DNA of 35,211 bases from an uncultured Candidatus Saccharibacteria bacterium (GTDB taxonomy: Bacteria > Patescibacteriota > Minisyncoccia > Phycocordibacterales > UBA918). The position numbers and the translations under genes are program-made. Positions within the stretch are counted from its first letter, which is position 1, and every line of letters starts with the position of its first letter. The stretch is from positions 1 through 35,211 of the forward strand of contig CAYRER010000004.1 in assembly GCA_964423385.1 (NCBI GenBank), in the 5' to 3' direction. Positions 55 to 30,239 of the stretch are shown one piece after another. The notes beneath the pieces are model-generated. The model was not told where the DNA came from. It did not search any database and worked only from the letters and a program-made list of their open reading frames with translations.

Positions 55-89
55 TATAGAACACACAAGAATAAGACAGTATTTGTATC

Positions 90-926
90 ATGAGGATTGG
101 ATGCATTGGTCAGGGGTGGGTGGGGAAGAACATCGCGGACAACTTCGAGGCCCGCGGGTACTCGGTTGTGCGCTACGCGCTCGAACCGGAGTACGCACTC
201 AATCGCCGGCACATCCGGGACTGTGACGTCGTTTTCATCGCAGTGCCGACGCCGACGACGCCGGAAGGCTTTGACTACAGCATTGTCGAGGAGGTAATCG
301 GGCTCGTCGGTGACGGAAAGATTGCCGTGGTGAAGTCGACGCTCCTCCCCGGCACGACTCGCAAGATTCAGGACAAGTACCCCGGGAAGGTCATCCTCTT
401 CTCGCCCGAGTTCCTCTGCGAGGCGACCGCCGCATACGACGTCGCGAACCCGATGCTCAACATCATGGGACTCTCGTACGATTCAGCGGGACACCGGAAG
501 GCGGCGGGCGAGGTCATGCGCATTCTCCCCCGGAGTGATCACAACTTCATTGTCCGCGCCGAGGCTGCCGAACTCTTCAAGTACGCGCACAACATCAACG
601 GTTACATGCGCGTCGTCTTCTCGAATCTCCTCTTCGAGGTAGCCGAGCGGACCGGCATCAACTGGGCAGACGTGAAACTCATCATGGACAGCGATCCGAT
701 GATGTCGCCGTACTACAACTCGCCGATTCATAAGAGCGGACGCGGGGCCGGCGGCCACTGCTTCATCAAGGATATGGCGGCGTTCCGCATGCTCTACGAG
801 GTCAAGAACTCCGAAGATACGAAGGGCATTGCCGTATTCAAAGCCCTCGAAGAGAAGAATCTCGAGCTCCTCAAGAAGACGAACAAGGATGCCGAGCTCG
901 TGAAGGGCGTGTACGGTACAATCTAG
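90..926 (+). CDS. UDP-glucose/GDP-mannose 6-dehydrogenase family protein, short form lacking the C-terminal UDP-binding domain
   Basis: ATG start. N-terminal Rossmann loop IGCIGQGWVG. Family motifs FIAVPTP, KSTLLPGTT, SPEFLCEATA and the catalytic-Cys motif GGHCFIKD are present. The protein is only 278 aa. Confidence 0.7.
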   Translation: MRIGCIGQGWVGKNIADNFEARGYSVVRYALEPEYALNRRHIRDCDVVFIAVPTPTTPEGFDYSIVEEVIGLVGDGKIAVVKSTLLPGTTRKIQDKYPGKVILFSPEFLCEATAAYDVANPMLNIMGLSYDSAGHRKAAGEVMRILPRSDHNFIVRAEAAELFKYAHNINGYMRVVFSNLLFEVAERTGINWADVKLIMDSDPMMSPYYNSPIHKSGRGAGGHCFIKDMAAFRMLYEVKNSEDTKGIAVFKALEEKNLELLKKTNKDAELVKGVYGTI

Positions 927-3065: not shown

Positions 3066-3174
3066 GTCCGCAAGTATACTGTCCCGAAGACCCCGAGACA
3101 AATAGAACCGCGGGAAGCCGGCACACAACCTTTCTTTCCGCTTGCCGGTAATAATACTTATAACTCGAATCACC

Positions 3175-4158
3175 ATGGATGCACGGGAACACCTCTACCG
3201 CACCATCGACGCCATGCCGGACGCACGCGTCCTCGTCGTCGGCGACGTCATGCTCGACGTGTACGAACGGTGCGCGGTCAGACGCATCTCCCCGGAAGCA
3301 CCGGTTCCGGTCGCTACGGTTCTCGAGGATTCCTCGTTCCTCGGCGGCGCAGGCAATGTCGCAAGCAATGTGCGTGCTCTCGGAGCGTCTGTTTCGATTG
3401 CGGGTGTTATCGGCAGTGACCGTGAGGGCGAGACGGTGCGGAAGCTCCTTCAAGAACAGGGAATCAATGACACAGGTCTCGTCGTCGAGGAGGGCAGGGT
3501 AACCACGGTAAAGCGGCGGATTGTCTCAGGGACACAGCAGCTCATTAGGATTGACCGGGAAATGACGGAGGACATAGATGCCGGTACCGAGCTTGCAATC
3601 TGTGATGCAATTGCCAGGCTCATTCCGGAGCATGATGTCGTCGTCGTTTCAGATTACTGCAAGGGTCTCCTTACCGAGAGTGTCATCAGTTTTGTAAAAG
3701 AGATAGCGACACAGTCAGGGAAGAAAATCTTTGTCGATTCAAAAAGCCGTCACCTTTCCCGCTACAGCGGGGTACACCTCATTAAGCCCAACAAGGCAGA
3801 GGCAGAGGCATTCGCCGGCGAGGCGTTTGCTCACGACTATGCTAATCTGGAGACCGTCGGAAGGCGGCTTTCCGCGATGCTCTCATCAAACCTCGTCGTG
3901 ACGCTCGGCGGCGACGGGATGGCGCTGTTTGAAGTGGAGAGGTTTGCACACAAACGAACCCTTGCACAAGATGTGTTCGATGTCTCGGGAGCGGGCGATA
4001 CGGTACTCTCGGTCGTTGCAACCGCGGTCGCGGTCGGCGCCGACCTCGAGAGTGCCGTTGACCTTTCAAATCACGCAGCCGGATACGTGGTGAGTAAACT
4101 CGGGACTGTTGCGTGCAACCAGGAAGTCCTCCGGGCAGCGCTTCAAGCTGCTCTGTAA
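3175..4158 (+). CDS. hldA: D-glycero-beta-D-manno-heptose-7-phosphate kinase (RfaE domain I / HldA-type PfkB kinase), stand-alone
   Basis: VLVVGDVMLDVY, ISPEAPVPV, GGAGNVASNVRALG and DVSGAGDTV match the kinase half of E. coli HldE almost motif for motif. ATG at 3175; the track ORF begins at a TTG at 3142. Confidence 0.85.
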   Translation: MDAREHLYRTIDAMPDARVLVVGDVMLDVYERCAVRRISPEAPVPVATVLEDSSFLGGAGNVASNVRALGASVSIAGVIGSDREGETVRKLLQEQGINDTGLVVEEGRVTTVKRRIVSGTQQLIRIDREMTEDIDAGTELAICDAIARLIPEHDVVVVSDYCKGLLTESVISFVKEIATQSGKKIFVDSKSRHLSRYSGVHLIKPNKAEAEAFAGEAFAHDYANLETVGRRLSAMLSSNLVVTLGGDGMALFEVERFAHKRTLAQDVFDVSGAGDTVLSVVATAVAVGADLESAVDLSNHAAGYVVSKLGTVACNQEVLRAALQAAL

Positions 4159-4178: not shown

Positions 4179-4745
4179 ATGCGCACATTTTTTCTCCAAG
4201 ACATTCCGCTTGCGGACATACGACACAACGACCTCCCTGCGTATCTCGCTGAGGGGTTCGGCGGGAAACCGATTGAGGAGTGGCCGGTGTACCGGTTCTT
4301 CACAATGTACTGGGAGGGTAACCGGGAAGAGGCCACCAGAGAGTTTGTCGAGTGGTACAGGGACCAGCTTGGGAAGTACGCGATGGTGCCGAAGCGGGAC
4401 GGAGGGATGCGCCGAGGTTCTCTCTACAACCTCATTGAGAAGCGGTGCGGCGTGCCGTTTGAGAAGACGGAAACCTCCTGCCGCGAGGCGACAATCCGGG
4501 AGCGCGTCTCACAGCGGCTCGGACTCCTCGACACCATACAGAGCCGCGGGTACCAGGCGGGGGAGGCAGAGCGCATCGACGGATTTCGGGAAAAGGGATT
4601 TGTGTACCTCACCGGAGGGCACCACCGCGCGGCAATCCTCAAGGTGCTCGGGGAGGAGAAGCTCCCCGGCGTGTTAGTATTCCCGAACCGGCTCGTTTAT
4701 AATTTCTTCACCTTACTCCGAAACATTCGACATGGCAGTATTTAA
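4179..4745 (+). CDS. Hypothetical protein with a ParB/sulfiredoxin-like GGHHR motif
   Basis: ATG at 4179, 20 nt after the upstream stop; the track ORF starts at a GTG at 4113 inside the upstream gene. The C-terminal segment GFVYLTGGHHRAAILKVLG resembles the GxxHR nucleotide-binding signature of the ParB/Srx fold. No other family was recognised. Confidence 0.6.
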   Translation: MRTFFLQDIPLADIRHNDLPAYLAEGFGGKPIEEWPVYRFFTMYWEGNREEATREFVEWYRDQLGKYAMVPKRDGGMRRGSLYNLIEKRCGVPFEKTETSCREATIRERVSQRLGLLDTIQSRGYQAGEAERIDGFREKGFVYLTGGHHRAAILKVLGEEKLPGVLVFPNRLVYNFFTLLRNIRHGSI

Positions 4746-18581: not shown

Positions 18582-19679
18582 ATGACACACCGGTTTACAG
18601 GGGAGAGCGAAGGCTACGTGCGGGTCTCGGAGGCATCGCTCCGGACGGTTACGGAATCCATCTTTATGCAGATGGGGGTACCCGAAGCGGACGCGCGCCT
18701 CGCAACCGACGTACTCGTCTCCTCTGACCTCCGGGGCATCGAGAGCCACGGTGTCTCCAACATGCTCCGCAAGTACGTGCGTGACTACCGGAACGGAAAG
18801 CTCAATCCGACGCCCGCGTGGCGCATCATCCGTGAGACCCCGTCAACGGCGAGCATTGATGCGGACGCTGGCCTCGGCCTCATCATCGCGCCTCGGGCGA
18901 TGGAGATTGCGATTCGGAAAGCACAGGAAGTCGGCATCGGCATGGTCACCATGAAGAATGTCGGGCACATGGGCATGGTTTCGTACTATCCGATGATGGC
19001 GCTCTCCCACGACATGATTGGCCTCGGCATGACCTCCTCGCCGCCCGAGGTTGTTCCGACCGGCGGGGCAGAGCCCCGACTCGGCACAAACCCGATTGCC
19101 CTCGCTGCTCCGGCAAACCGTCAGATTCCCTTTGTCTTTGATGCAGCTACGTCGGTTGTCTCAAACAACAAACTCGGCATCGCCCGCCGCCTCGGCGTGA
19201 AGCTGCCGCCGGGCTGGATTGCTGACGCCGAGGGTACTCCGCTCATGCGGGAAGCCGACCCGCCGCCGGAAGGCCGCGGCCGCGCGAACATGCTCCCGCT
19301 CGGGTCTGCACCGGAACTCAGCTCCCACAAGGGGTACGGTCTCGGGTGCGTCGTTGAGATTCTGAGTGGCATTCTCGCCGGCGGTGGATTCGGTGCAGCA
19401 GAACGGAAGACAGGATACTCACACATGGTCGCGGCATACCGCATCGATGCTTTCATGGATACCGGGGAGTTTAAGAACACAATGGACGAATGGCTCAAAG
19501 TCCTCAAGGAAACGAAACCTGCGAAGGGTGAGACGCGGGTACTCTATCCGGGCATTCTCGAGCAGGAATCCGAGGAGGAAAACAGAAAGAGGGGAATTCC
19601 GCTCCATCGAGAGACCGTGAAGTGGTTTTCAGATACCTGCAGTGAACTTGGCATTGAGGCGTCCGTCGAGGAAATATGA
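18582..19679 (+). CDS. Ldh_2 family (malate/L-lactate/sulfolactate/diketogulonate-type) NAD(P)H-dependent oxidoreductase
   Basis: DVLVSSDLRGIESHGV, GTNPIALAAP and SSHKGYGLG are typical Ldh_2 blocks. Confidence 0.8.
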   Translation: MTHRFTGESEGYVRVSEASLRTVTESIFMQMGVPEADARLATDVLVSSDLRGIESHGVSNMLRKYVRDYRNGKLNPTPAWRIIRETPSTASIDADAGLGLIIAPRAMEIAIRKAQEVGIGMVTMKNVGHMGMVSYYPMMALSHDMIGLGMTSSPPEVVPTGGAEPRLGTNPIALAAPANRQIPFVFDAATSVVSNNKLGIARRLGVKLPPGWIADAEGTPLMREADPPPEGRGRANMLPLGSAPELSSHKGYGLGCVVEILSGILAGGGFGAAERKTGYSHMVAAYRIDAFMDTGEFKNTMDEWLKVLKETKPAKGETRVLYPGILEQESEEENRKRGIPLHRETVKWFSDTCSELGIEASVEEI

Positions 19680-20413
19680 ATGATATAAGACAGTTTGCTG
19701 AAATTGCCGAGCACGCGGCGCGTGCCGCAGGAGCATTTCTTCGCGGACACCGGGCAACGCTCGTCGCAAGCTTCGGCAAAGATACAAAGATTGATGCCGA
19801 TATGCGGGCACATACGCTCATCGTCGAGCACCTTGCCCCCACTGGCATACCGGTGCTTTCCGAGGAGGGCGCTGAACACACGTTCACCGATGCGCGCATG
19901 TGGGTAGTAGATCCACTCGACGGGAGCATCAACTTCCTCCGCGGAATTCCAAATGCGGCGGTCTCGATAGCGCTCGTTGAGCGGGGAGAGCCGGTGTTCG
20001 GAGTCATCTACGATTTTATGCGGGATGAGCTCTACAGTGGTGTCGTCGGCGGCGGCGCACAGCTCAATGGGAAAGACATTTCTGTTTCCGATACCAGAGA
20101 CAAGCGGGAGGGCATCATCATGACCGGGTTCCCGTCGTACACCGACTACGCGCGCGAAGCTCTCGAGCAGTACATTGCGCTCGTACAGGGTTTTAAAAAG
20201 GTCCGCCTCATCGGCTCTGCCGCACTCTCGCTCGCGTACGTCGCTTCGGGAAAGGCGGATGCGTACTACGAGAAGGACATAAAGATCTGGGATGTCGCGG
20301 CGGGACTCGCGCTCGTCCGCGCCGCAGGCGGGAGCGTCACGGCGAGCGCCGTCGGTGAAGCGGGGAAGTGCACGGTCTTTGCCGGGAACGGAGCGATTGT
20401 TCTCGAGGGCTGA
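19676..20413 (+). CDS. Inositol monophosphatase family phosphatase (SuhB/CysQ-like; substrate unknown)
   Basis: VLSEEG, WVVDPLDGSINF and WDVAAG motifs are present. ATGA start/stop overlap with the upstream gene. Confidence 0.8.
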   Translation: MNDIRQFAEIAEHAARAAGAFLRGHRATLVASFGKDTKIDADMRAHTLIVEHLAPTGIPVLSEEGAEHTFTDARMWVVDPLDGSINFLRGIPNAAVSIALVERGEPVFGVIYDFMRDELYSGVVGGGAQLNGKDISVSDTRDKREGIIMTGFPSYTDYAREALEQYIALVQGFKKVRLIGSAALSLAYVASGKADAYYEKDIKIWDVAAGLALVRAAGGSVTASAVGEAGKCTVFAGNGAIVLEG

Positions 20414-20477: not shown

Positions 20478-21503
20478 TCAGCTGGTGAGCGCGCTCACGA
20501 TGGCGTCCGCCGCCCCCGCAAACTTCTCGGGAGTGAGCACCGCTTCCTGCTGCGCTTTCATCGCCTGTGCGCCACCGTTCAGCAGCCCGTGCATTCCGAG
20601 CGAGAGGCCGTCGACATCACGGGTCTCCCTCGAGATGGAGATCCGGGCGGGTGGCCAGAAGGACAGTCCGCTCAGTTCTTCCCACCAGAGCACGTCGAGG
20701 GGGAGGATGTGGTCGATGACCGGCACCCGCTGACACCCCGCCATGAGCGTGATGGTCGATCCACTGCCCGTGACGGCGAGGTCGGCTGCGGCGAAGAGTT
20801 CCTGCGTGCTCAGCGAGATGCCGCTTTCGAGGAATCCCGCCGTGTGCGTCGACCAGCGAAGGACGCTCCGGTAGAGCTCTCGCGGGTGGTCGGCCCCGGG
20901 GTGTGCCGTGAAGAGGAGTCGGAGCGGCCTCTCGACACGTCGCGCTGCGAGCACTACGTCGGTGAACAACCCGACGTTCCTCTCGAGCTCCTTGGAGCCG
21001 GAGATGAGCACGAGCTTTTCTTCCGAGAGGCCGAGCCGACCGCGCACTACGTCGCGGTTTGCGGTCGCGAAGAACGTCGCCCAGTACGGGTTGCCCGAGG
21101 CCACGATGGTGGCTTCGGGACGTACGTACGTGCGGGCGACATCCCGCTCGGATTCGTCGGTGATGAAGAGCAGGTTCGCTCCCCGCACGACCTCCGCAGA
21201 CCAGGGGCGATGGTATGCCCCGTAGATGTCCGAAAAGACCGCGGTGTGTACGCCGAGGAGCTTCGCCTGGAGCGCCGCGTGGCGCTCCTCGACGACCCGG
21301 TCGGCCGACGACGAGATGCCGGTGAGGAGCCAGTCGGCTCCTTGGAGCGCCTCGTCGATTTTCTCGAGGCTCCCTTCGGGGAGGGGCTTGCCGTCTCCAA
21401 GGAAGCAGGATACGGTGCACCCAGGCTCCCGGAGGAGAGCATCCGCAACGATACGGAACGTGTTGCTCGGACCCGCATCGCGAGTTACGATGACGATTTT
21501 CAA
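20478..21503 (-). CDS. Hypothetical protein, GT-B-like two-Rossmann architecture (family not recognised)
   Basis: On the minus strand, AGGAGG (21509-21514) lies 5 nt upstream of a TTG start at 21503, giving MKIVIVTRDAGPSN. The ORF is open up to the ATG at 21563. The C-terminal LAVTGSGSTITLMAG resembles GT-B donor-site loops. Confidence 0.6.
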   Translation of the reverse strand: MKIVIVTRDAGPSNTFRIVADALLREPGCTVSCFLGDGKPLPEGSLEKIDEALQGADWLLTGISSSADRVVEERHAALQAKLLGVHTAVFSDIYGAYHRPWSAEVVRGANLLFITDESERDVARTYVRPEATIVASGNPYWATFFATANRDVVRGRLGLSEEKLVLISGSKELERNVGLFTDVVLAARRVERPLRLLFTAHPGADHPRELYRSVLRWSTHTAGFLESGISLSTQELFAAADLAVTGSGSTITLMAGCQRVPVIDHILPLDVLWWEELSGLSFWPPARISISRETRDVDGLSLGMHGLLNGGAQAMKAQQEAVLTPEKFAGAADAIVSALTS

Positions 21504-21670: not shown

Positions 21671-23437
21671 ATGAGCATGAGAGAGAAACAAGCACTTGTC
21701 ATCTTTGGAGATGTCATCTCCAAAGACGGGAGACGCCTCATCCCGGTGCACGGGACAGTTATTGCGCCGCGCTCGCTCGAGGGTGAGGTTGCTGCGCTCG
21801 GCGGGGAGCACCGTCCCCTCGAGCCGTTCATTGAGCCGGGGAGCATCTACGAGGCGAGCGCGCTTGCTGGCGAACTCTCCCAACTCACGCTCCCAGACGG
21901 TACACCCGTCAGAAAGGCGTTCACCTTCAAGGGCTTCGACCTCTGGTGGCTCAACTACCAGAACCTGTTCACCCGCTTCTGTCTCCCATACACGCAGTAC
22001 CGGAAGCTCCTCGAGCATCTCAAGGATTTTGAGAGTGTCACTTTCGTAAACCCCCCGTTTGCGAGTCTCTTCTCGTGTTACCTGCGCGCACATGCCACAG
22101 GTGTGTCCGTTGTTCGCTCAAATCGGTCTGAAGCCCGGCAGAGACTGCCGCTTGGCATCATCGTACAGATGTTCCTCACGCTCCTCGCTGTACCGCTCGC
22201 GGCGGTACAGCGGAAGCCCATCATGGTTTCTACCGGTGACAAGTTTGAGACGGGGAGAGACTACGATTTCCGGATGCGGTTTGCGTACGAAGAACTCCGG
22301 CGCCGAGAGCTCCCCTTTGTCGAGTTTGTGCGTAGTCTCGAATCATCAAAAATGATACTTCAGCATGCGTGGAAGCGAAGACGGCCGGTCATCTACACAG
22401 AAGCAGTCACCTTCCTCGCCCGGTTTGTGAGCGTTGCCTTCGGCGGACACCGTCGCGCCCGGGCACGGTTCGGTGATCAGGTGTTTGCGGCAATTCAGAC
22501 TCCGAAGGATCGGTTTAAGTCGATTATTGGCGTGCAGTACCTACTCACCGCGTACGACGATATCATCGCAATACGCATCATGGAGTGGATTGTGCGGATT
22601 ATCGGTGTGAAGGCGGCGTTTGTTCCGGCGACAACAGAGCGTAACTTCCACACGGTTCTTGGGTGCAAGCTCGCGGGAGTACCTACGGTCGGCATACTCC
22701 ACGGCGCCGCATCCCGCAACTACAATCTCTACGAATTTACGCCAGGATTTGACGGAGAGAGGCGCCTTTCGGTCGACCGATACGGCGTGTGGAGTCAGTG
22801 GTGGAAGGAATATTTTGAGAAGTACGGGAATGCATATGCTCCGGAGCAGATATTTGTCTCTGGCCCTATGCGTCCGATTCAGAAGACGGGAACCATCCCC
22901 ACTGCATCACCAACTAATGATGGAAGAGTGAAGGTGCTCCTTGTCTCCGAAGTCGTTGCAATTCCAACCGAGGTGGTGCCGTATCTTGACACGCTCCTCG
23001 CAACTTCAGACTTTTCCGTACACATAAAATTCCGTGCAACGCACGATAGTTTCGAACAGTGGCTCATCGACAACCGACCGGATATTCTCGCAGCAGTCGG
23101 TTCGGCTCGCATCCTTAAGGGAACGATGCAGGAAGCGATTACGGTATGCGACGTCGTTGTCGGCTGTCAGAGCACCGGGGTTATTGAGGCGACGCTTCAA
23201 AACAAGCCGTTCGTCTTTTTCAGAACAAATAAATGGGGAGACTATTTTGATATGAAATCCTACGACCCGAGACATCACTTCTTTGCAGAGAACTCGGAAG
23301 AGCTTATACGCTTCATCCGTGAAGGGAAGGCAATTCCTCATTCAGTTCTTGAAACGCTCCGGGAGCGTTTCTTCGGTGACCCGTACAAGAACGGGAGTGC
23401 ATGGGTCATTGATGAGCTGGTGTCCATTCTTCATTAA
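21671..23437 (+). CDS. Hypothetical large protein (about 590 aa); its C-terminal half resembles GT-B capsule-type glycosyl- or phosphotransferases
   Basis: Long uninterrupted ORF with ordinary amino-acid composition. Segments VPTVGILHGAASRNYNLYEF, VKVLLVSE and DVVVGCQSTGVIEATLQNKPFVFF look like Rossmann beta-alpha units. The start is uncertain: ATG 21671, ATG 21677 or GTG 21635. Confidence 0.6.
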   Translation: MSMREKQALVIFGDVISKDGRRLIPVHGTVIAPRSLEGEVAALGGEHRPLEPFIEPGSIYEASALAGELSQLTLPDGTPVRKAFTFKGFDLWWLNYQNLFTRFCLPYTQYRKLLEHLKDFESVTFVNPPFASLFSCYLRAHATGVSVVRSNRSEARQRLPLGIIVQMFLTLLAVPLAAVQRKPIMVSTGDKFETGRDYDFRMRFAYEELRRRELPFVEFVRSLESSKMILQHAWKRRRPVIYTEAVTFLARFVSVAFGGHRRARARFGDQVFAAIQTPKDRFKSIIGVQYLLTAYDDIIAIRIMEWIVRIIGVKAAFVPATTERNFHTVLGCKLAGVPTVGILHGAASRNYNLYEFTPGFDGERRLSVDRYGVWSQWWKEYFEKYGNAYAPEQIFVSGPMRPIQKTGTIPTASPTNDGRVKVLLVSEVVAIPTEVVPYLDTLLATSDFSVHIKFRATHDSFEQWLIDNRPDILAAVGSARILKGTMQEAITVCDVVVGCQSTGVIEATLQNKPFVFFRTNKWGDYFDMKSYDPRHHFFAENSEELIRFIREGKAIPHSVLETLRERFFGDPYKNGSAWVIDELVSILH

Positions 23438-24246: not shown

Positions 24247-25509
24247 TTAACCCCGGCTTACGCGTAACCACAGGCCAATATTGATAATAGTACCAATCAA
24301 GGTATTGAGTAGATTTGCATACACTAGGCCAATTACTCCCCCCCAGATACCACCAACAACATAGAGTACGACTGCAATACCACTTTGCATGAATGTCCGA
24401 CTAAAAAGAGTCCTCGAGAGGCCCTGAGAAGTGAACAGGAGACTCATATATCGATTGGGGAGAGCAAAAATGAAGTTCATGGCAAGCAGCTGGGAGTAGC
24501 GGATGCTCTCAAGGTACTGGGGCAGGAGGTACGTAAATACATACGGCGAGACAATAATGTATCCCGCTGTCGCGGTAAGGCCGATGAGCATTCCCTGGAC
24601 AATCCGCCGGTAGAACACCTGGTTGATTTCAGCAAACGTCTTTTCGGCAAACTTCGGGAATCCGACCGCCACCCAGCTCTTGATGAAGAGCGTTGCACGC
24701 GCAGGGATGGCACTCGCGAGTGCATAGACCGCAAGGGGTCCGGCACCCCAGAAACTTCCGAGGATGAGCTTGTCGACCTGAGAGACAACAGGATCAATGA
24801 AGCGCAGGTAGGTGAGCTCTCTGCCGTACTGCTCCGTCTCCCGTATGTCAGGTGCAGCGCCAAGCCCGAATCTCCGGACAACATACACGTAAAAGACGTA
24901 TGCGGGGATGAAGGTAGCTGCCGTGTACGCAACGATGAGCCAGACAACTTCATCGGTCAGAAGAAGCGCAACAAGCATACCGAGGGAATACGTGAGCGTT
25001 GAGAGGACGCTGAGGACGTTCGCAAGTCCGAACCGTTTCATTCCCTCGAGGTACGAGCTGTACGTATTGAAGGCGAGCGTGAAGGGAACGAACGAACCGA
25101 GGATGAGGAGAGCTGTACCAAGTACCTGGTCTCCCTGAGAGAGGTAGTACCCGCCGAGGACGTATGACGCAGCGAGCATGAGAAGATTCCACTTGAACTG
25201 GTAGCCGACCGCCGGACGGAGTACATCTTCGCCACCGCGCGCAACGGCCCGCGCAACGGCATTGTTCATGCCGGTGAGCGTGAAGATGTTGAGAATGCCG
25301 GCGATGGAGAGTATGTAGCGGTAGAGACCGTACGTTTCCTTCGGGAGCAGGTTGGCAAACGCAATGACGAGAAGGAGCGAGAGAACGCTGTTCATTGTCT
25401 GACCGAGCACTACCCAGGAGCCGCTCTTTGCAATATAGAGCATGTCCGCACGGGTATATTTCTGACTCCAGAGGAGGATGTTTCTGGCGTGTGTTCGAAT
25501 ATTTCTCAC
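24247..25509 (-). CDS. wzx: Wzx-type oligosaccharide flippase (MOP superfamily polysaccharide biosynthesis protein)
   Basis: A 420-aa polytopic membrane protein. The N-terminus (KYTRADMLYIAKSGSWVVLGQTMNSVLSLLLVIAFANLL...YGLYRYILS) is typical of flippases in polysaccharide clusters. GTG start with AGGAG immediately upstream. Confidence 0.75.
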   Translation of the reverse strand: MRNIRTHARNILLWSQKYTRADMLYIAKSGSWVVLGQTMNSVLSLLLVIAFANLLPKETYGLYRYILSIAGILNIFTLTGMNNAVARAVARGGEDVLRPAVGYQFKWNLLMLAASYVLGGYYLSQGDQVLGTALLILGSFVPFTLAFNTYSSYLEGMKRFGLANVLSVLSTLTYSLGMLVALLLTDEVVWLIVAYTAATFIPAYVFYVYVVRRFGLGAAPDIRETEQYGRELTYLRFIDPVVSQVDKLILGSFWGAGPLAVYALASAIPARATLFIKSWVAVGFPKFAEKTFAEINQVFYRRIVQGMLIGLTATAGYIIVSPYVFTYLLPQYLESIRYSQLLAMNFIFALPNRYMSLLFTSQGLSRTLFSRTFMQSGIAVVLYVVGGIWGGVIGLVYANLLNTLIGTIINIGLWLRVSRG

Positions 25510-25631: not shown

Positions 25632-26225
25632 ATGAAGGAGCATATCAGGGAGTCGATTGCGGTGAAGGAGCGTCTGCTCAAGGACGATGCATTTCTCCGG
25701 ACACTCGGGGAGGTTGTTGAAGAGCTCAGGGGGGTGTACGAACGGGGAGGAAAAATCCTCATTGTTGGGAATGGGGGAAGCGCTGCGGACGCACAGCATT
25801 TTGCAGCGGAGATTACGTGCCAGTTTAAAGAGACGAGGAGGGGGTACCCTGCCCTCGCACTCCACACAGACACTTCCGCGATGACCGCGTGGGGGAACGA
25901 CAAGAGCTTCGATACGGTCTTCGCACGACAGGTCGAAGCTCATGGGCGGGCAGGTGACGCTCTCGTCGTTATTTCGACGAGTGGAAACTCAAAGAATCTC
26001 ATTGCTGCTGCGAAAGAGGCACGAGTGAAAGGTCTTCGCATTGTGGGACTCCTCGGCAGAGACGGTGGGGAGCTTGTGAGTGGAGGATACTGTGATCACG
26101 TACTCATTGTGCCGTCAGAAGAGACTCCTCGCATTCAGGAGTCGCACATCCTTCTCATCCACATCATTTGCGACGCTCTCGATGGGTTTTTTGTGACGCT
26201 CGCCAAGCAGGATTCTGAACGATAG
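25632..26225 (+). CDS. gmhA: D-sedoheptulose-7-phosphate isomerase (phosphoheptose isomerase, SIS domain)
   Basis: GNGGSAADAQHFAAE, VISTSGNSKN and IQESHILLIHIICD are present. The 197-aa size fits GmhA. Confidence 0.9.
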   Translation: MKEHIRESIAVKERLLKDDAFLRTLGEVVEELRGVYERGGKILIVGNGGSAADAQHFAAEITCQFKETRRGYPALALHTDTSAMTAWGNDKSFDTVFARQVEAHGRAGDALVVISTSGNSKNLIAAAKEARVKGLRIVGLLGRDGGELVSGGYCDHVLIVPSEETPRIQESHILLIHIICDALDGFFVTLAKQDSER

Positions 26226-26250
26226 TCCATTACTTTTCTCTTTCATTTGG

Positions 26251-26259
26251 TGTTATAGT
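26251..26259 (+). promoter_or_regulatory. Candidate extended -10 element (TGTTATAGT) upstream of the sulfate-activation gene
   Basis: tgttatagt matches TGnTATAAT at 8 of 9 positions. It sits in an AT-rich 64-nt spacer, 31 nt upstream of the ATG at 26290. Confidence 0.3.
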
Positions 26260-26289
26260 GTGCGTTGCTTTTAGGGTAATGTTTGATAC

Positions 26290-27939
26290 ATGAGTTCAGA
26301 GAATGCCGATATACTCCACTTGCCGCGATTAAACCTCAAGGGAAGGACTCTCCACGACCTCGAGGTGATGCTCGTCGGCGGCTTCTTGCCGGTCAGGGGC
26401 TTTATGGACGAGGAGGATTACACCTCTGTCGTCGAGACGATGCGCCTCAAGGACGGCAGTCTTTTTCCGATTCCTATTGTACTCGATATTCCGCATGATA
26501 GTACGTATCAGGCCGGAGACCGGATCCTCCTCTGCGACCCATTTGGGAACCCCGTGGCTACCATGGACATCACCTCGCGCTTTACTCCCGATAAGGAGAA
26601 GGAATCGCTCGGTGTGTACGGCACGCTCGACAAGACACACCCCGGGGTGGAGTACCTCATGGACGAAATGCACGATACGTACGTGGGTGGTCCCGTCACG
26701 AAGATTGCGCTCCCCATGCGGCACGACTTCAAGCAGTTTCGGCAGACGCCCGAGGACCTGAAGAAGCTCTTCAAAGAGCGCGGGTGGGACAAGGTTGTCG
26801 GTTTCCAGACCAGGAACCCCATGCACCGCGCGCACTTCGAGCTCGTGAAGCGTGCCTACGAAAAGACGGGTGCTCCAGTCCTCGTGCACCCGGTCGTCGG
26901 CATGACGAAGCCGGGTGATATTGATTACGTGACGCGCGTCCGCACGTACAACGTTGTCTGCAACACGTACGGAAAGGATTTTACGCACCTTGCTCTTCTT
27001 CCCTTGGCAATGCGCATGGCGGGTCCCCGCGAAGCTCTCTGGCATGCCATCATCCGGAAGAACTACGGCTGTACACACTTCATCTCGGGACGCGACCACG
27101 CGGGGCCGGGGAAGGACAGCAAGGGGAACCCGTTCTACGAGCCGTATGAGGCGCGCGACCTGCTCCTCAAGCATGCGGACGAAATCGGCATTACGGTCGT
27201 TCCATCGGACGAACTTGCGTACTCGAAGACCCGGGGGACGTATGTTGCCGCGGACGAGGTGACGCCGGAAGATGAGATTGAGAATATCTCCGGCACCGAG
27301 TTCCGTCGGCGTCTCCGTGAAGGGGAGGATATTCCCGAGTGGTTTTCGTTCAAGGAGTCAATCGACATCCTCCGCGAGAGCGTGAAGAAAGACACCCGTC
27401 CGGGCGTCATGATTTTCTTCACGGGTCTCTCGTGCTCAGGAAAGTCGACCCTGGCTCAGCTCCTCCTCGCACGGCTCCAGGAGCTCCAGGACCGCGACAT
27501 CACGTTCCTCGACGGCGACATCATCCGTACGCACCTCTCGAAGGGTCTCGGTTTTTCGAAGGAGGATCGTGACGAGAACGTGAAGCGCGTCGGCTTCGTC
27601 GCCGCGGAAGTTGTCCGCCACGGCGGCATCGTCATCTCGGCGCTCATCGCGCCGTATCGCGACGCGCGTCGGTACGTCCGGAACATGATTGAGCACTACG
27701 GCGAATTCATTGAGATTTTTGTCGACACCTCGCTCGAAGAGTGTGCACGGCGTGATACGAAGGGGCTCTACGAAAAGGCACGGCAGGGGCTCATCAAGAA
27801 CTTCACTGGCGTCGATGATCCGTACGAGCGCCCGGAGCACCCCGAGCTTATCGCAAAGACTGAAGAAGCAACGCCCGAGGTACTGGTAGAAAACATACTC
27901 GAGTACCTCTACGAGAGAGGGGTTTTGACACAGAAGTAA
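26290..27939 (+). CDS. sat: Bifunctional sulfate adenylyltransferase (ATP sulfurylase) / adenylylsulfate kinase; PAPS synthase
   Basis: Sat motifs FQTRNPMHRAHFEL and GRDHAGPG. C-terminal APS-kinase P-loop FFTGLSCSGKSTLA, then LDGDIIRTHL and ISALIAPY. Confidence 0.9.
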   Translation: MSSENADILHLPRLNLKGRTLHDLEVMLVGGFLPVRGFMDEEDYTSVVETMRLKDGSLFPIPIVLDIPHDSTYQAGDRILLCDPFGNPVATMDITSRFTPDKEKESLGVYGTLDKTHPGVEYLMDEMHDTYVGGPVTKIALPMRHDFKQFRQTPEDLKKLFKERGWDKVVGFQTRNPMHRAHFELVKRAYEKTGAPVLVHPVVGMTKPGDIDYVTRVRTYNVVCNTYGKDFTHLALLPLAMRMAGPREALWHAIIRKNYGCTHFISGRDHAGPGKDSKGNPFYEPYEARDLLLKHADEIGITVVPSDELAYSKTRGTYVAADEVTPEDEIENISGTEFRRRLREGEDIPEWFSFKESIDILRESVKKDTRPGVMIFFTGLSCSGKSTLAQLLLARLQELQDRDITFLDGDIIRTHLSKGLGFSKEDRDENVKRVGFVAAEVVRHGGIVISALIAPYRDARRYVRNMIEHYGEFIEIFVDTSLEECARRDTKGLYEKARQGLIKNFTGVDDPYERPEHPELIAKTEEATPEVLVENILEYLYERGVLTQK

Positions 27940-27940
27940 A

Positions 27941-27973
27941 ACAAACCCGCCCGCCTCCGGCGGGCGGGTTTGT
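27941..27973 (+). terminator. Perfect 15-bp stem hairpin immediately after the sat/cysC stop codon
   Basis: acaaacccgcccgcc / tcc / ggcgggcgggtttgt. Confidence 0.6.
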
Positions 27974-28055
27974 ACCTTGACGCACGAGCGAACCCGTAAT
28001 GAAGTGAGCCGTGGTTTCATGGGGGAAGGGGAGGTATGGTATAGTTTTTGACACT

Positions 28056-30239
28056 ATGAAAGACATCGCAAAGGCAGTCGTGTACGCCGGTATCTTCGCT
28101 GTTCCGGCAATCGTGCTCATTATCTCGAACAACCTCTTTTTCCCGTTCATTACCGGAAAGAACTTCACGTTCCGCATCATCGTCGAAATCGTCTTCGCGG
28201 CGTGGATTATCCTCGCGCTCTATGATGCACAGTACCGGCCGAAGTTTTCCTGGATTCTCGGGGCATTCCTCGCCTTCCTCGTCGCCATCTTCTTCTCGGA
28301 CCTTTTCGGCGCGTACTCGCTCCAGAGTTTCTGGAGCAATTTTGAGCGCATGGAGGGGTATGTAACCCTCGTCCACACGTTCCTCTACTTTGTCGTCGCC
28401 GGAAGCATCCTCAGGACCGAAAAACACTGGGATAGGTTTTTCCTCACGACCATCGGCGTCGCCCTCGTCGTCTCCCTCTACGCGTTCGCACAGCTCTCGG
28501 GGAACATCGTCATCAACCAGGGCGGGTGGCGTCTCGACGGGACCCTCGGCAACTCGTCGTACATGGCGATTTACATGCTCTTCCACACGTTCATCGCACT
28601 CTTCATGCTTCTCAGGACCCCGAACGTGCCGATGCGGTGGGTCTACGGTGCACTCACCGTCCTCTTCATCTACCTCCTCGTCCAGACCGCGACGCGCGGA
28701 ACCATCCTCGGTCTCGTCGGCGGGTCGCTCGTCATGGTGACCTACATGGCGCTCTTCGCGAAGAACTATCCGAACGTCCGGAAGGCTGCGGCAGGCGGGC
28801 TCGTCGCCCTCGTCGCTATAGTCGCGCTCTTCATCACGTTCAAAGAGTCTGCGTTTGTGCAGGGGAACCCGTACCTCCAGCGTGTCGCCACCATCTCGCT
28901 TGCCGAAGCGCAGAACCGCTTCAACATCTGGAGCATGGCTTTCGAGGGCGTAAAGGAGCGTCCGATTTTCGGGTGGGGCCAGAGCAACTATGGCTATGTC
29001 TTCAACAAGTACTACAAGCCGGAGCTTCACGGTCAGGAAGCGTGGTTTGACCGCGTCCACAACATCGTCATGGACTGGCTCATCGCGGGCGGATTCGTCG
29101 GGGTCACCCTCTACTTCTCGATTGTCGCCGCGGCGCTCTACTACCTCTTCCTCCGACCCCTCACGAGAGACGATGAAACGTTTTCGGTTGTCGAGCGGGG
29201 CGTGCTCATCGGGCTCATTGTCGGATACTTCATCCACAACTTCGTCGTCTTCGACAACATCGTGAGCTACATCTTCTATGGCACCATTCTTGCGTACATC
29301 CACGCGCGGGTTGCCACACCCGTCCCCTCCATCGAGCGGTTCAAGATTGACGGCCGGATTGTCGAGCAGGTGGTCTCGCCCATTGTCGCTGTCGTACTCC
29401 TCATCACGGTCTACTACGTGAACGTTCCGGGCATCCAGGCGGCAGGCGACATCATCGACGGATTCCGCGCGACGAACGGGGAAGAAATACTCGCGTCGTT
29501 CGAACGTGCGCTCGCGCGCGGGTCGTTCGGGACGCAGGAAATCCGCGAGCAGATGATGCAGCGCATCCAGCCCCTCTTCCAGGACCCGAACCTTTCTGAG
29601 GAATTCAAGCAGCGCGCGTTCAAACGCGTCGAGGAAGAGCTCCTCGCGCAGCTTGAAGAAAAGCCAGGCGACGCACGTGCACACGTCTTCATGGCCTCGT
29701 TCTACCGCATGACGAACAACCTGGAGCCCGCAATAGAGCAGCTCGCAAAGGCGCGTGAACTTTCACCCCGGAAACAGCTCATCATTTTCGAGCAGGGTAT
29801 GGCGGAGATTCAGCGGCAGAACTACGAGGCAGGACTCCAGTTCTTCAAGGAGGCGTACGAGCTGGGGACCCAGTTCACCGAATCACGCGTTCTCTACGCG
29901 ATGGCTGCCGTTTACGCCGGGAAGCTTGGACTCGTCGATGAGCTTCTCCCGACACCGGAAGACAAGCGCGCGTTTGCACTCAACGATATGGCGGTTCAGG
30001 CAGTCTACACGGCGAAGATGTACCCGCTCCTTGTCGATATGTTTAACACCCGCATCGAGGCAAATCCCGCCGAACCGCAGATTCGCACGAGTCTCGCATT
30101 TATCCTCAACGAGTCGGGTGACACGAAGGGTGCCATTGAGGTGCTCCGAAGGGCCGCTGAAGACATCCCTTCATTCAAAGCGCAGGCAGAGAATTTTATC
30201 GTGAACCTCGAGAACCCCGGACCAACACCGGCCCAGTAG
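28056..30239 (+). CDS. Wzy_C / O-antigen-ligase-family membrane protein with a C-terminal TPR-like repeat domain
   Basis: TATRGTILGLVGG and HNIVMDWLIAGGFVGVTLY are Wzy_C-type blocks. The C-terminal roughly 230 aa form helical repeats (AIEQLAKARELSP..., GAIEVLRRAAEDIP). ATG at 28056; an alternative GTG lies at 28011. Confidence 0.8.
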   Translation: MKDIAKAVVYAGIFAVPAIVLIISNNLFFPFITGKNFTFRIIVEIVFAAWIILALYDAQYRPKFSWILGAFLAFLVAIFFSDLFGAYSLQSFWSNFERMEGYVTLVHTFLYFVVAGSILRTEKHWDRFFLTTIGVALVVSLYAFAQLSGNIVINQGGWRLDGTLGNSSYMAIYMLFHTFIALFMLLRTPNVPMRWVYGALTVLFIYLLVQTATRGTILGLVGGSLVMVTYMALFAKNYPNVRKAAAGGLVALVAIVALFITFKESAFVQGNPYLQRVATISLAEAQNRFNIWSMAFEGVKERPIFGWGQSNYGYVFNKYYKPELHGQEAWFDRVHNIVMDWLIAGGFVGVTLYFSIVAAALYYLFLRPLTRDDETFSVVERGVLIGLIVGYFIHNFVVFDNIVSYIFYGTILAYIHARVATPVPSIERFKIDGRIVEQVVSPIVAVVLLITVYYVNVPGIQAAGDIIDGFRATNGEEILASFERALARGSFGTQEIREQMMQRIQPLFQDPNLSEEFKQRAFKRVEEELLAQLEEKPGDARAHVFMASFYRMTNNLEPAIEQLAKARELSPRKQLIIFEQGMAEIQRQNYEAGLQFFKEAYELGTQFTESRVLYAMAAVYAGKLGLVDELLPTPEDKRAFALNDMAVQAVYTAKMYPLLVDMFNTRIEANPAEPQIRTSLAFILNESGDTKGAIEVLRRAAEDIPSFKAQAENFIVNLENPGPTPAQ

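Follow-up and report, generated by a model that had tools for sequence, protein, structure and literature searches.

The window analysed here is a stretch of 35,211 nucleotides, the first 35.2 kb of contig C4, from an uncultured Candidatus Saccharibacteria bacterium whose genome assembly comprises 834 kb in 55 contigs and is 86% complete. Pfam scans of its 30 open reading frames (ORFs) identify the window as a large surface-glycan island. The gene of interest, sat/cysC, encodes a bifunctional ATP sulfurylase / adenosine 5'-phosphosulfate (APS) kinase, that is, a synthase of 3'-phosphoadenosine 5'-phosphosulfate (PAPS). An earlier note on this DNA, made from its letters alone, had described sat/cysC as a fused gene lying between gmhA and a Wzy_C gene, with an AT-rich upstream spacer of its own and a strong downstream hairpin; the domains, all of the quoted motifs, both neighbours, the spacer and the hairpin were confirmed. 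The organism is labelled G000 below, and its relatives carry labels of the type G0xx. The labelled relatives come from two independent samples: an even draw of 201 genomes from the order to which G000 belongs, with G000 itself among them, and 300 genomes from across the phylum.

The sat/cysC gene and its island

The gene and the features that surround it are as follows.

24247-25509, minus strand: Wzx-type flippase (Polysacc_synt; Pfam)
25632-26225, plus strand: gmhA-like sedoheptulose-7-phosphate isomerase (SIS_2; Pfam), the upstream neighbour of sat/cysC
26226-26289, plus strand: AT-rich spacer of 64 nt between gmhA and sat/cysC (read from the sequence)
26290-27939, plus strand: sat/cysC, bifunctional ATP sulfurylase / APS kinase (PAPS synthase), 549 aa (Pfam, NCBIfam NF004040, motifs)
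27941-27973, no strand assigned: perfect 15-bp GC-rich hairpin straight after the sat/cysC stop codon (folding)
28011-30239, plus strand: Wzy_C + TPR polymerase/ligase-like membrane protein (Pfam), the downstream neighbour of sat/cysC

The Sat/CysC protein may be considered in terms of a PUA-like region (residues 8-139; PUA_2, E = 1.8e-40), a sulfurylase domain (residues 149-363; PF01747, E = 5.2e-83) and an APS kinase domain (residues 372-521; PF01583, E = 7.3e-59). Against the NCBIfam equivalog NF004040 it scores 778.7 bits, above the cut-off of 669, with residues 6-547 covered. The sulfurylase active-site motifs QTRNPMHRAH and GRDHAGPG can be read in the translation, as can the P-loop GLSCSGKST, the LDGD motif and the sequence NFTGVDDPYE (FTG-x-D-x-PYE type) of the kinase, whose match to PF01583 extends over model positions 2-150 of 152. 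Because the P-loop, DGD and FTG-x-D-x-PYE motifs are intact, the kinase domain looks catalytic and not like a degenerate regulatory copy.

In its order of PUA-like, sulfurylase and APS kinase domains, and in its equivalog-level score, the protein resembles the Aquifex aeolicus-type fusion that NF004040 describes. It differs in the P-loop, where GLSCSGKST presents a Cys at the position of the usual Gly, and its activity is a predicted one. The animal PAPSS1/2 proteins are analogous fusions with the opposite domain order. The kinase also reads IAPYR where E. coli CysC has ISPHR.

The spacer that precedes the gene has a GC content of approximately 34%, compared to approximately 57% for the region, and contains the sequence TATAGT at 26254-26259, 30 nt ahead of the ATG. 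A simple sigma-70 scan of the spacer found no full consensus promoter, and a promoter function may be inferred only. On the downstream side, the 96-nt stretch that includes the hairpin (27925-28020) was calculated to fold with -40.8 kcal/mol (z = -4.5), and none of 200 shuffled sequences folded equally well. The T-run of the hairpin is on the minus-strand side.

The remainder of the island encodes glycosyltransferases of the GT4, GT2 and GT9 families along with numerous methyltransferases. Its sugar genes include a PfkB kinase, gmhA, a KdsB-like cytidylyltransferase with a GFO-methyltransferase fusion, an Ldh_2 protein and a phosphatase of the IMPase family. The island ends with Wzx and the Wzy_C + TPR protein, followed by MurB and SecA.

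Outlets for PAPS

As the earlier note had reported, the window is without a recognisable sulfotransferase. None of its 30 ORFs gave a Pfam sulfotransferase match, and a six-frame motif scan of the window presented no candidate for a 5'-phosphosulfate-binding (PSB) loop in a credible frame. A hidden Markov model (HMM) built from nine sulfotransferases of the candidate phyla radiation (CPR) and run with --max over all frames found nothing in C4 better than E = 9. The same note saw no sulfate-reduction gene in the window, and this holds genome-wide: no match was found in the assembly to PAPS_reduct (PF01507; CysH/CysD; controls positive in 14 of 14 genomes) or to the sulfite reductase family NIR_SIR (PF01077; controls positive in 11 of 14 genomes). 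The check for a complete assimilatory sulfate reduction pathway elsewhere in the genome returned neither CysH nor sulfite reductase, and the assembled 86% of the genome contains no assimilatory or dissimilatory outlet for PAPS. For a PAPS synthase without a reductive outlet, sulfation is therefore the most likely use.

Reductive use of sat does exist elsewhere in the phylum, since PAPS_reduct is adjacent to sat in G272. This genome and two others of the phylum sample (G403 and G447), all three of them larger Patescibacteria genomes, pair sat with a strong PAPS_reduct match. The pairing, together with the 14% of the G000 genome that is unassembled and might hold reductive genes, would favor a role for Sat/CysC in assimilatory sulfate reduction and cysteine synthesis. 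Such a role is highly improbable given the negative genome searches and the setting of sat/cysC, which is part of a glycan island and is bracketed by a spacer and a hairpin of its own. Furthermore, no PAPS_reduct match was found in the eight other genomes of the order that bear sat, several of which are 95-99% complete.

Where, then, a sulfotransferase might be found had been left by the earlier note between a gene outside the window and an orphan protein of a new type inside it. The first part of this proposal stood and the second, taken up below, did not. A genome-wide search identified exactly one canonical sulfotransferase gene, located within a glycan cluster on contig C15 that probably abuts the window start.

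C15:15499-16344: canonical Sulfotransfer_1 gene, product of 281 aa (Pfam, custom HMM, PDB comparison)
Window 55-140, plus strand: stretch matching the end of C15 (19156-19241, its last 86 nt) with 89.5% identity, a probable join

The C15 protein matches Sulfotransfer_1 with E = 9e-25 (88 bits, cut-off 22) and Sulfotransfer_3 with E = 9e-20, and is the sole match of the custom HMM in the genome. Genome searches with Sulfotransfer_2, Sulfotransfer_4 and Stf0 were negative; the controls were silent too, so these searches carry little weight. The best matches in the PDB were an uncharacterised bacterial protein (3rnl, E = 1.6e-24), the heparan sulfate (HS) 3-O-sulfotransferase 3-OST-3 (E = 4.5e-20) and the sulfotransferase domain of NDST1 (E = 1e-14). 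After 3rnl, the HS 3-O-sulfotransferase and NDST structures (1t8t, 3uan, 1nst) are the best solved relatives. The 5'-PSB loop GAQKSGTSW and the 3'-phosphate-binding (3'-PB) motif LRNPVDRAYS align with 3rnl and HS 3-OST-3, and the EIHFF sequence falls at the position of EPHFF in HS 3-OST-3, retaining the conserved Glu. With its PAPS-binding and catalytic motifs intact, the enzyme looks active. Unlike the animal HS enzymes, it is a bacterial, probably cytoplasmic protein of 281 aa with no Golgi anchor. No hydrophobic stretch or signal peptide was found at its amino terminus; it should therefore act in the cytoplasm, where PAPS is synthesized.

The glycan cluster on C15 comprises four GT4 genes, an epimerase/dehydratase, an AsnB-type amidotransferase, a CE4 polysaccharide deacetylase and the sulfotransferase. 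The latter is flanked by a GT4 gene and the deacetylase gene, the start of which it overlaps by 4 nt. In the deacetylase itself, both the TFDDG and the H-T-x-x-H motif are preserved. One could consider the sulfotransferase and the deacetylase as a two-protein analogue of NDST, in which the amine of an N-acetylhexosamine would be freed and then N-sulfated. The C15 deacetylase is of the CE4 type and unrelated to the NDST deacetylase domain. Among the relatives, G050 has a clear version of the gene pair, while G024 and G144 have weak ones; the sat gene of G031 has a deacetylase gene directly 3' of it. While this arrangement is clearly unlikely, it would place an N-sulfated amino sugar in the surface glycan of a CPR bacterium.

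The genome contains the 86-nt stretch twice, in C15 and in the window, and nowhere else; each copy lies at a terminus of its contig, and the two are oriented head to tail. Positions 1-54 of the window consist of 54 C's and are an assembly artefact. Eight of the nine mismatches between the C15 tail and C4 have G or C in C15 and A or T in C4, a pattern that looks like low-quality read ends and unlike a diverged repeat. A search for other assemblies across the junction found no record of the product of window 90-926. The Logan contigs that contain orphan 1, a protein from the beginning of the window, are only 1.7-3.4 kb long and end short of the junction. From the shared stretch and the synteny described next, C15 may be placed against the window start with good confidence, such that C15 and C4 would form one island.

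A contig from a groundwater Patescibacteria relative has orthologues of the C15-type genes GT4_15d (43%) and AsnB (42%) directly upstream of orthologues of the window-type genes GT4_a, orphan 1 (56%), MT_b (65%) and GT9 (57%). The groundwater island also ends in the order of the window, with orphan 3, Wzx, WzyC, MurB and SecA. No sulfotransferase and no Sat/CysC were found in the island stretches that were fetched (approximately 42 kb of the 71-kb contig), and WzyC directly follows Wzx with no room for gmhA and Sat/CysC. As a side observation, this island (L072/L075) has GT9 and no homologue of gmhA, of the PfkB heptose kinase (window 3142-4158) or of the CE4 deacetylase. A second relative, G158, belongs to the same family as G000 and is 99% complete. 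In G158, C15-type genes (epimerase and GT4_15a-d) and window-type genes (UGDH-like, Wzx, WzyC, MurB and SecA) are present in one island, and a sulfotransferase gene adjoins WzyC in the slot held by Sat/CysC in G000.

Sat and sulfotransferase genes in related genomes

ATP sulfurylase was identified in nine of the 201 order genomes (G000, G024, G031, G037, G049, G050, G096, G135 and G136), which are spread over nine different families. An additional genome, G126 (59% complete), has an APS-kinase fragment only. All nine sat-bearing genomes contain a Sulfotransfer_1 match, compared to 29 of the 201 genomes overall. When G000 is left out, the proportions are 8/8 against a background of 28/200, with a hypergeometric probability of approximately 6e-8 that is indicative only, given kinship or joint gene transfer.

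The two genes are also found close together. They are direct neighbours in G037, G096 and G136 and stand one gene apart in G031; in G050 and G049 the same island holds both, with 14-15 kb between them. The contig of G050 carries a trio of a GT4_15d-like gene, a sulfotransferase (47% identical) and a CE4 deacetylase in the company of Wzx and Sat/CysC (55%). In G049, Sat/CysC adjoins WzyC-TPR as it does in G000, and the sulfotransferase adjoins a gmhA homologue. With this adjacency in mind, and with gmhA and PfkB absent from the homologous island of the groundwater relative, heptose and sulfation may possibly be connected. In the phylum sample, sat was found in 10 of 300 genomes, six of which have a sulfotransferase; the distance to sat is within approximately 1.5 kb in G260, G301 and G391. 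The module is rare, at approximately 3-5% of the genomes sampled; its rarity and its scattered distribution among families suggest an accessory trait that can be exchanged.

A sporadic accessory gene that resembles a self-contained unit might be a passenger that was acquired recently and has no role, or might supply APS or PAPS to a host cell. Both ideas are highly improbable. The reading frame of sat/cysC and all of its catalytic motifs are intact, sat and WzyC are neighbours in other families too (G049, and nearly so in G031), and the sulfotransferase accompanies sat in each of the nine genomes of the order.

Two further arrangements were observed among the relatives. In four genomes, Sat carries an N-terminal pyruvate kinase (PK) barrel in a PK / PUA_2 / Sat order.

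L057:9525-12314, minus strand: PK/PUA_2/Sat locus of G037
L058:9428-11665, minus strand: PK/PUA_2/Sat locus of G096
L059:8682-10916, plus strand: PK/PUA_2/Sat locus of G031
L061:9379-11457, minus strand: PK/PUA_2/Sat locus of G136

In G037 the APS kinase is fused as well, for a total of 929 aa, and a 710-aa Sat ORF in G024 is probably a PK fusion of the same kind. The PK-Sat fusion suggests that ATP is regenerated from phosphoenolpyruvate for PAPS synthesis. In the second arrangement (G155, C17:16597-19874), a sulfotransferase gene, an APS-kinase-like gene and a CysD-like gene of the PAPS_reduct family lie side by side. This locus appears to be the same sulfation module built on the other, CysDN-type, sulfurylase.

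The proposed pathway and other island proteins

Taken as a whole, the evidence favors an explanation in which 26290-27939 encodes a working PAPS synthase whose sole outlet in this organism is the sulfation of a glycan by the C15 sulfotransferase. A rough probability of 0.7 is assigned to this explanation. The suggestion made earlier that the glycan may be sulfated stands insofar as sulfation is the likeliest use of PAPS, there being no reductive outlet and a sulfotransferase in a glycan cluster; the island glycan is the putative acceptor.

The gene identities are those established above, and from them a pathway may be inferred in each of its catalytic steps and in its acceptor. The sulfurylase domain would convert ATP and sulfate to APS, which the fused kinase domain would phosphorylate to PAPS. 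In the cytoplasm, PAPS would be consumed by the single canonical HS-3-OST/NDST-like sulfotransferase encoded on C15, in a cluster that most probably continues the window island on its upstream side. The sulfate would be placed on a lipid-linked repeat unit ahead of the Wzx flippase and of export and assembly by the Wzy_C-TPR protein. The by-product, 3'-phosphoadenosine 5'-phosphate (PAP), would most likely be cleared by a CysQ-like paralogue encoded on contig C12, and the IMPase of the window would not be used.

Sulfotransfer_1 members act on many classes of substrate, and the join between C15 and C4 is unproven. The C15 enzyme could thus use PAPS to modify something other than the island glycan, such as a lipid, a small metabolite or, in a RaxST-like manner, a peptide tyrosine. 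This is rather unlikely given that the sulfotransferase gene has a GT4 gene on one side and, on the other, the CE4 deacetylase gene that it overlaps, that its best solved relatives are carbohydrate sulfotransferases, and that the sulfotransferase genes of the relatives are found among GT4, Wzx and WzyC genes.

The assignment of the PAP phosphatase involves the following genes.

18582-19679, window: Ldh_2 protein; the closest NCBIfam model is L-sulfolactate dehydrogenase (218.8 bits, far under the cut-off of 500)
19676-20413, plus strand: IMPase-family phosphatase (Inositol_P, E = 3.3e-56; Pfam, NCBIfam)
C12:5674-6477, minus strand: CysQ-like IMPase paralogue (NCBIfam TIGR01331)

The earlier note had assigned the window protein to the IMPase family, the family of the PAP phosphatase CysQ, which the Inositol_P match bears out; a role as the CysQ partner of Sat/CysC is not supported by the subfamily scores. 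With the FBPase/IMPase model and with the SuhB model the protein reaches 131 bits, compared to 114 bits on CysQ (TIGR01331, cut-off 228.8), such that all scores are below their cut-offs and CysQ is not the best subfamily. The start of its gene overlaps the stop of Ldh_2 by 4 nt. A search for this Ldh_2 partner in the rest of the order sample, 200 genomes of which eight bear sat, returned no orthologue; therefore, the presence of the Ldh_2-IMPase cassette is not tied to that of the sulfation genes. Ldh_2 is probably a 2-oxo/2-hydroxy-acid dehydrogenase of a sugar-acid cassette, unrelated to PAPS. At the corresponding place in the groundwater relative lies a canonical set of KdsA, KdsC and KdsB. 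The IMPase-family genes of six relatives without sat are equidistant from both G000 paralogues and have no cassette neighbours.

For the C12 paralogue, CysQ is the best model by far, with 183.6 bits compared to 103 for HisN. The protein is 37% identical to a CysQ-like protein encoded two genes downstream of Sat/CysC in G050, and three of the four strongest CysQ-like matches in the order are from sat-bearing genomes. By these comparisons, the C12 gene is a better candidate for the PAP phosphatase than the IMPase gene of the window.

Several observations weigh against glycan sulfation as the purpose of Sat/CysC. The sulfotransferase gene is on another contig, and the join consists of 86 nt at 89.5% identity plus synteny. 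The score of the C12 protein is below the CysQ equivalog cut-off (183.6 compared to 228.8 bits), and in six sat-bearing relatives no IMPase-family match reaches E = 1e-20. A search of the genome for a sulfate importer, which covered SulP alone, gave no match. Among the order genomes with a sulfotransferase, 20 of 29 have no sat. These include G158, G022, G035, G144 and G042, which are near-complete (90-100%) and have Sulfotransfer_1 with neither ATP sulfurylase nor APS kinase. The link between sulfotransferase and Sat is therefore not obligatory in that direction. For symbiont-like cells that have a sulfotransferase and no sat, the host is one possible source of PAPS.

Glycan-sulfation modules that combine PAPS synthesis with a sulfotransferase are also present in rhizobia, mycobacteria and cyanobacteria. 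Rhizobial NodPQ with NodH, and mycobacterial CysDNC with Stf0, resemble the module described here in coupling PAPS supply to a glycoconjugate sulfotransferase. They differ in the use of a CysDN GTPase-coupled sulfurylase, in their sulfotransferase subfamilies and in their acceptors, which are lipo-chitooligosaccharide or trehalose. The G000 module is an ordinary one of PAPS synthase and sulfotransferase with standard enzymology.

For the marine gammaproteobacterium Vibrio sp. KMM 8419, the presence of PAPS genes and sulfotransferases in a polysaccharide cluster is described as a hallmark of sulfated polysaccharide synthesis (PMC11641403), and the marine gammaproteobacterium Cobetia marina KMM 1449 appears to have a similar cluster (PMC11766843). 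The likeness to the Vibrio cluster is in the combination, a probable one in G000, of PAPS genes, carbohydrate sulfotransferases, glycosyltransferases and a Wzx-type flippase in a polysaccharide locus. The PAPS gene and the sulfotransferase share one locus in G050, G037, G096, G031 and G049; in G000 the PAPS gene is inside the polysaccharide locus and the sulfotransferase is on C15, the 3' end of which matches the window start. The Vibrio cluster contains a second copy of CysDN and CysC, whereas G000 has a homo-oligomeric-type Sat fused to CysC. A further difference is that G000 is a CPR bacterium of approximately 0.9 Mb in which no assimilatory pathway was found and the module is predicted from its genes.

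A literature search on sulfation in Patescibacteria/CPR found no description of this module in the phylum. If the proposed pathway is correct, some ultra-small CPR/Patescibacteria coat themselves with sulfated glycans at a cost of two ATP per sulfate, despite their reduced genomes. The strongly anionic surface that would result could matter for host attachment, cation binding and phage avoidance. The analysis also has a corrective value, in that no new sulfotransferase need be postulated and the CysQ role is better assigned to a gene other than the window IMPase.

The proteins that had been put forward as possible sulfotransferases of a new type are three orphans of the window. Their homologues are found in genomes labelled Patescibacteria, Paceibacterota and Zambryskibacteria.

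4179-4745, plus strand: orphan 1, 188 aa; GGHHR motif invariant, ParB/sulfiredoxin-like fold in the C-terminal part (alignment, AlphaFold2, Foldseek)
20478-21503, minus strand: orphan 2, a GT-B fold enzyme (GT4 / UDP-GlcNAc 2-epimerase-like; AlphaFold2, Foldseek, PDB profile)
21671-23437, plus strand: orphan 3, 588 aa, with a GT-B-like C-terminal domain (NCBIfam, hhalign)

Single-sequence searches of the three orphans against the PDB found nothing. The search for a sulfotransferase fold was extended to sensitive profile comparisons for all three and to modelled structures for orphans 1 and 2, and none was found. When each orphan family was compared by hhalign to the CPR sulfotransferase profile, the probability was less than 1% (0.7% for orphan 1). 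AlphaFold2 produced a high-confidence model of orphan 1, with a predicted local distance difference test (pLDDT) score of 93.5, and a model of orphan 2 with a pLDDT of 96.8. Foldseek searches with the two models gave no sulfotransferase or P-loop kinase-like matches. For orphan 2, which has 587 relatives in the representative library, the matches were BshA, MshA and the UDP-GlcNAc 2-epimerase WecB (E of approximately 3e-10, template modelling scores of 0.6-0.69), and a PDB profile search identified CapG (7e-6). A plus-strand frame over orphan 2 was rejected as compositional noise.

Orphan 3 is widespread in Patescibacteria (231 matches). It has weak matches to the NCBIfam BFO_1060 glycosyltransferase model (2.9e-6) and, in 14 of 36 members, to DUF6716. 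An hhalign comparison (93.8%) shows its carboxy terminus to be a homologue of the orphan-2 family, and no match was found for its first 480 or so residues in sequence and profile searches. The Wzx-to-WzyC slot of the groundwater island that has an orthologue of orphan 3 holds no Sat/CysC.

The unmatched amino terminal region of orphan 3 and the nucleotide binding of the ParB/sulfiredoxin-like fold in orphan 1 are the two points in favor of a new-type sulfotransferase in the window, whether beside or instead of the C15 enzyme. This possibility is very unlikely. The folds of orphans 1 and 2, the GT-B-like carboxy terminus of orphan 3 and the hhalign results led to the rejection of the orphans as sulfotransferases. 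The groundwater island, in which neither Sat/CysC nor a sulfotransferase was found in the fetched stretches, carries orthologues of orphans 1 and 3. A canonical sulfotransferase is present in the genome, and therefore no new type is needed.

Orphan 1 belongs to a small, conserved family that no family model covers. Profile searches gave sub-threshold matches to sulfiredoxin and SerK, with which the fold search later agreed: the Foldseek matches were Noc, ParB, Srx, SerK and SbnI only, and were confined to the C-terminal 70-80 residues. From its modelled fold, orphan 1 may be an ATP- or CTP-using enzyme of glycan modification, perhaps a kinase. In both the window and the groundwater relative, its gene is always located 5' of the same methyltransferase gene and a gene of the GT9 heptosyltransferase family.

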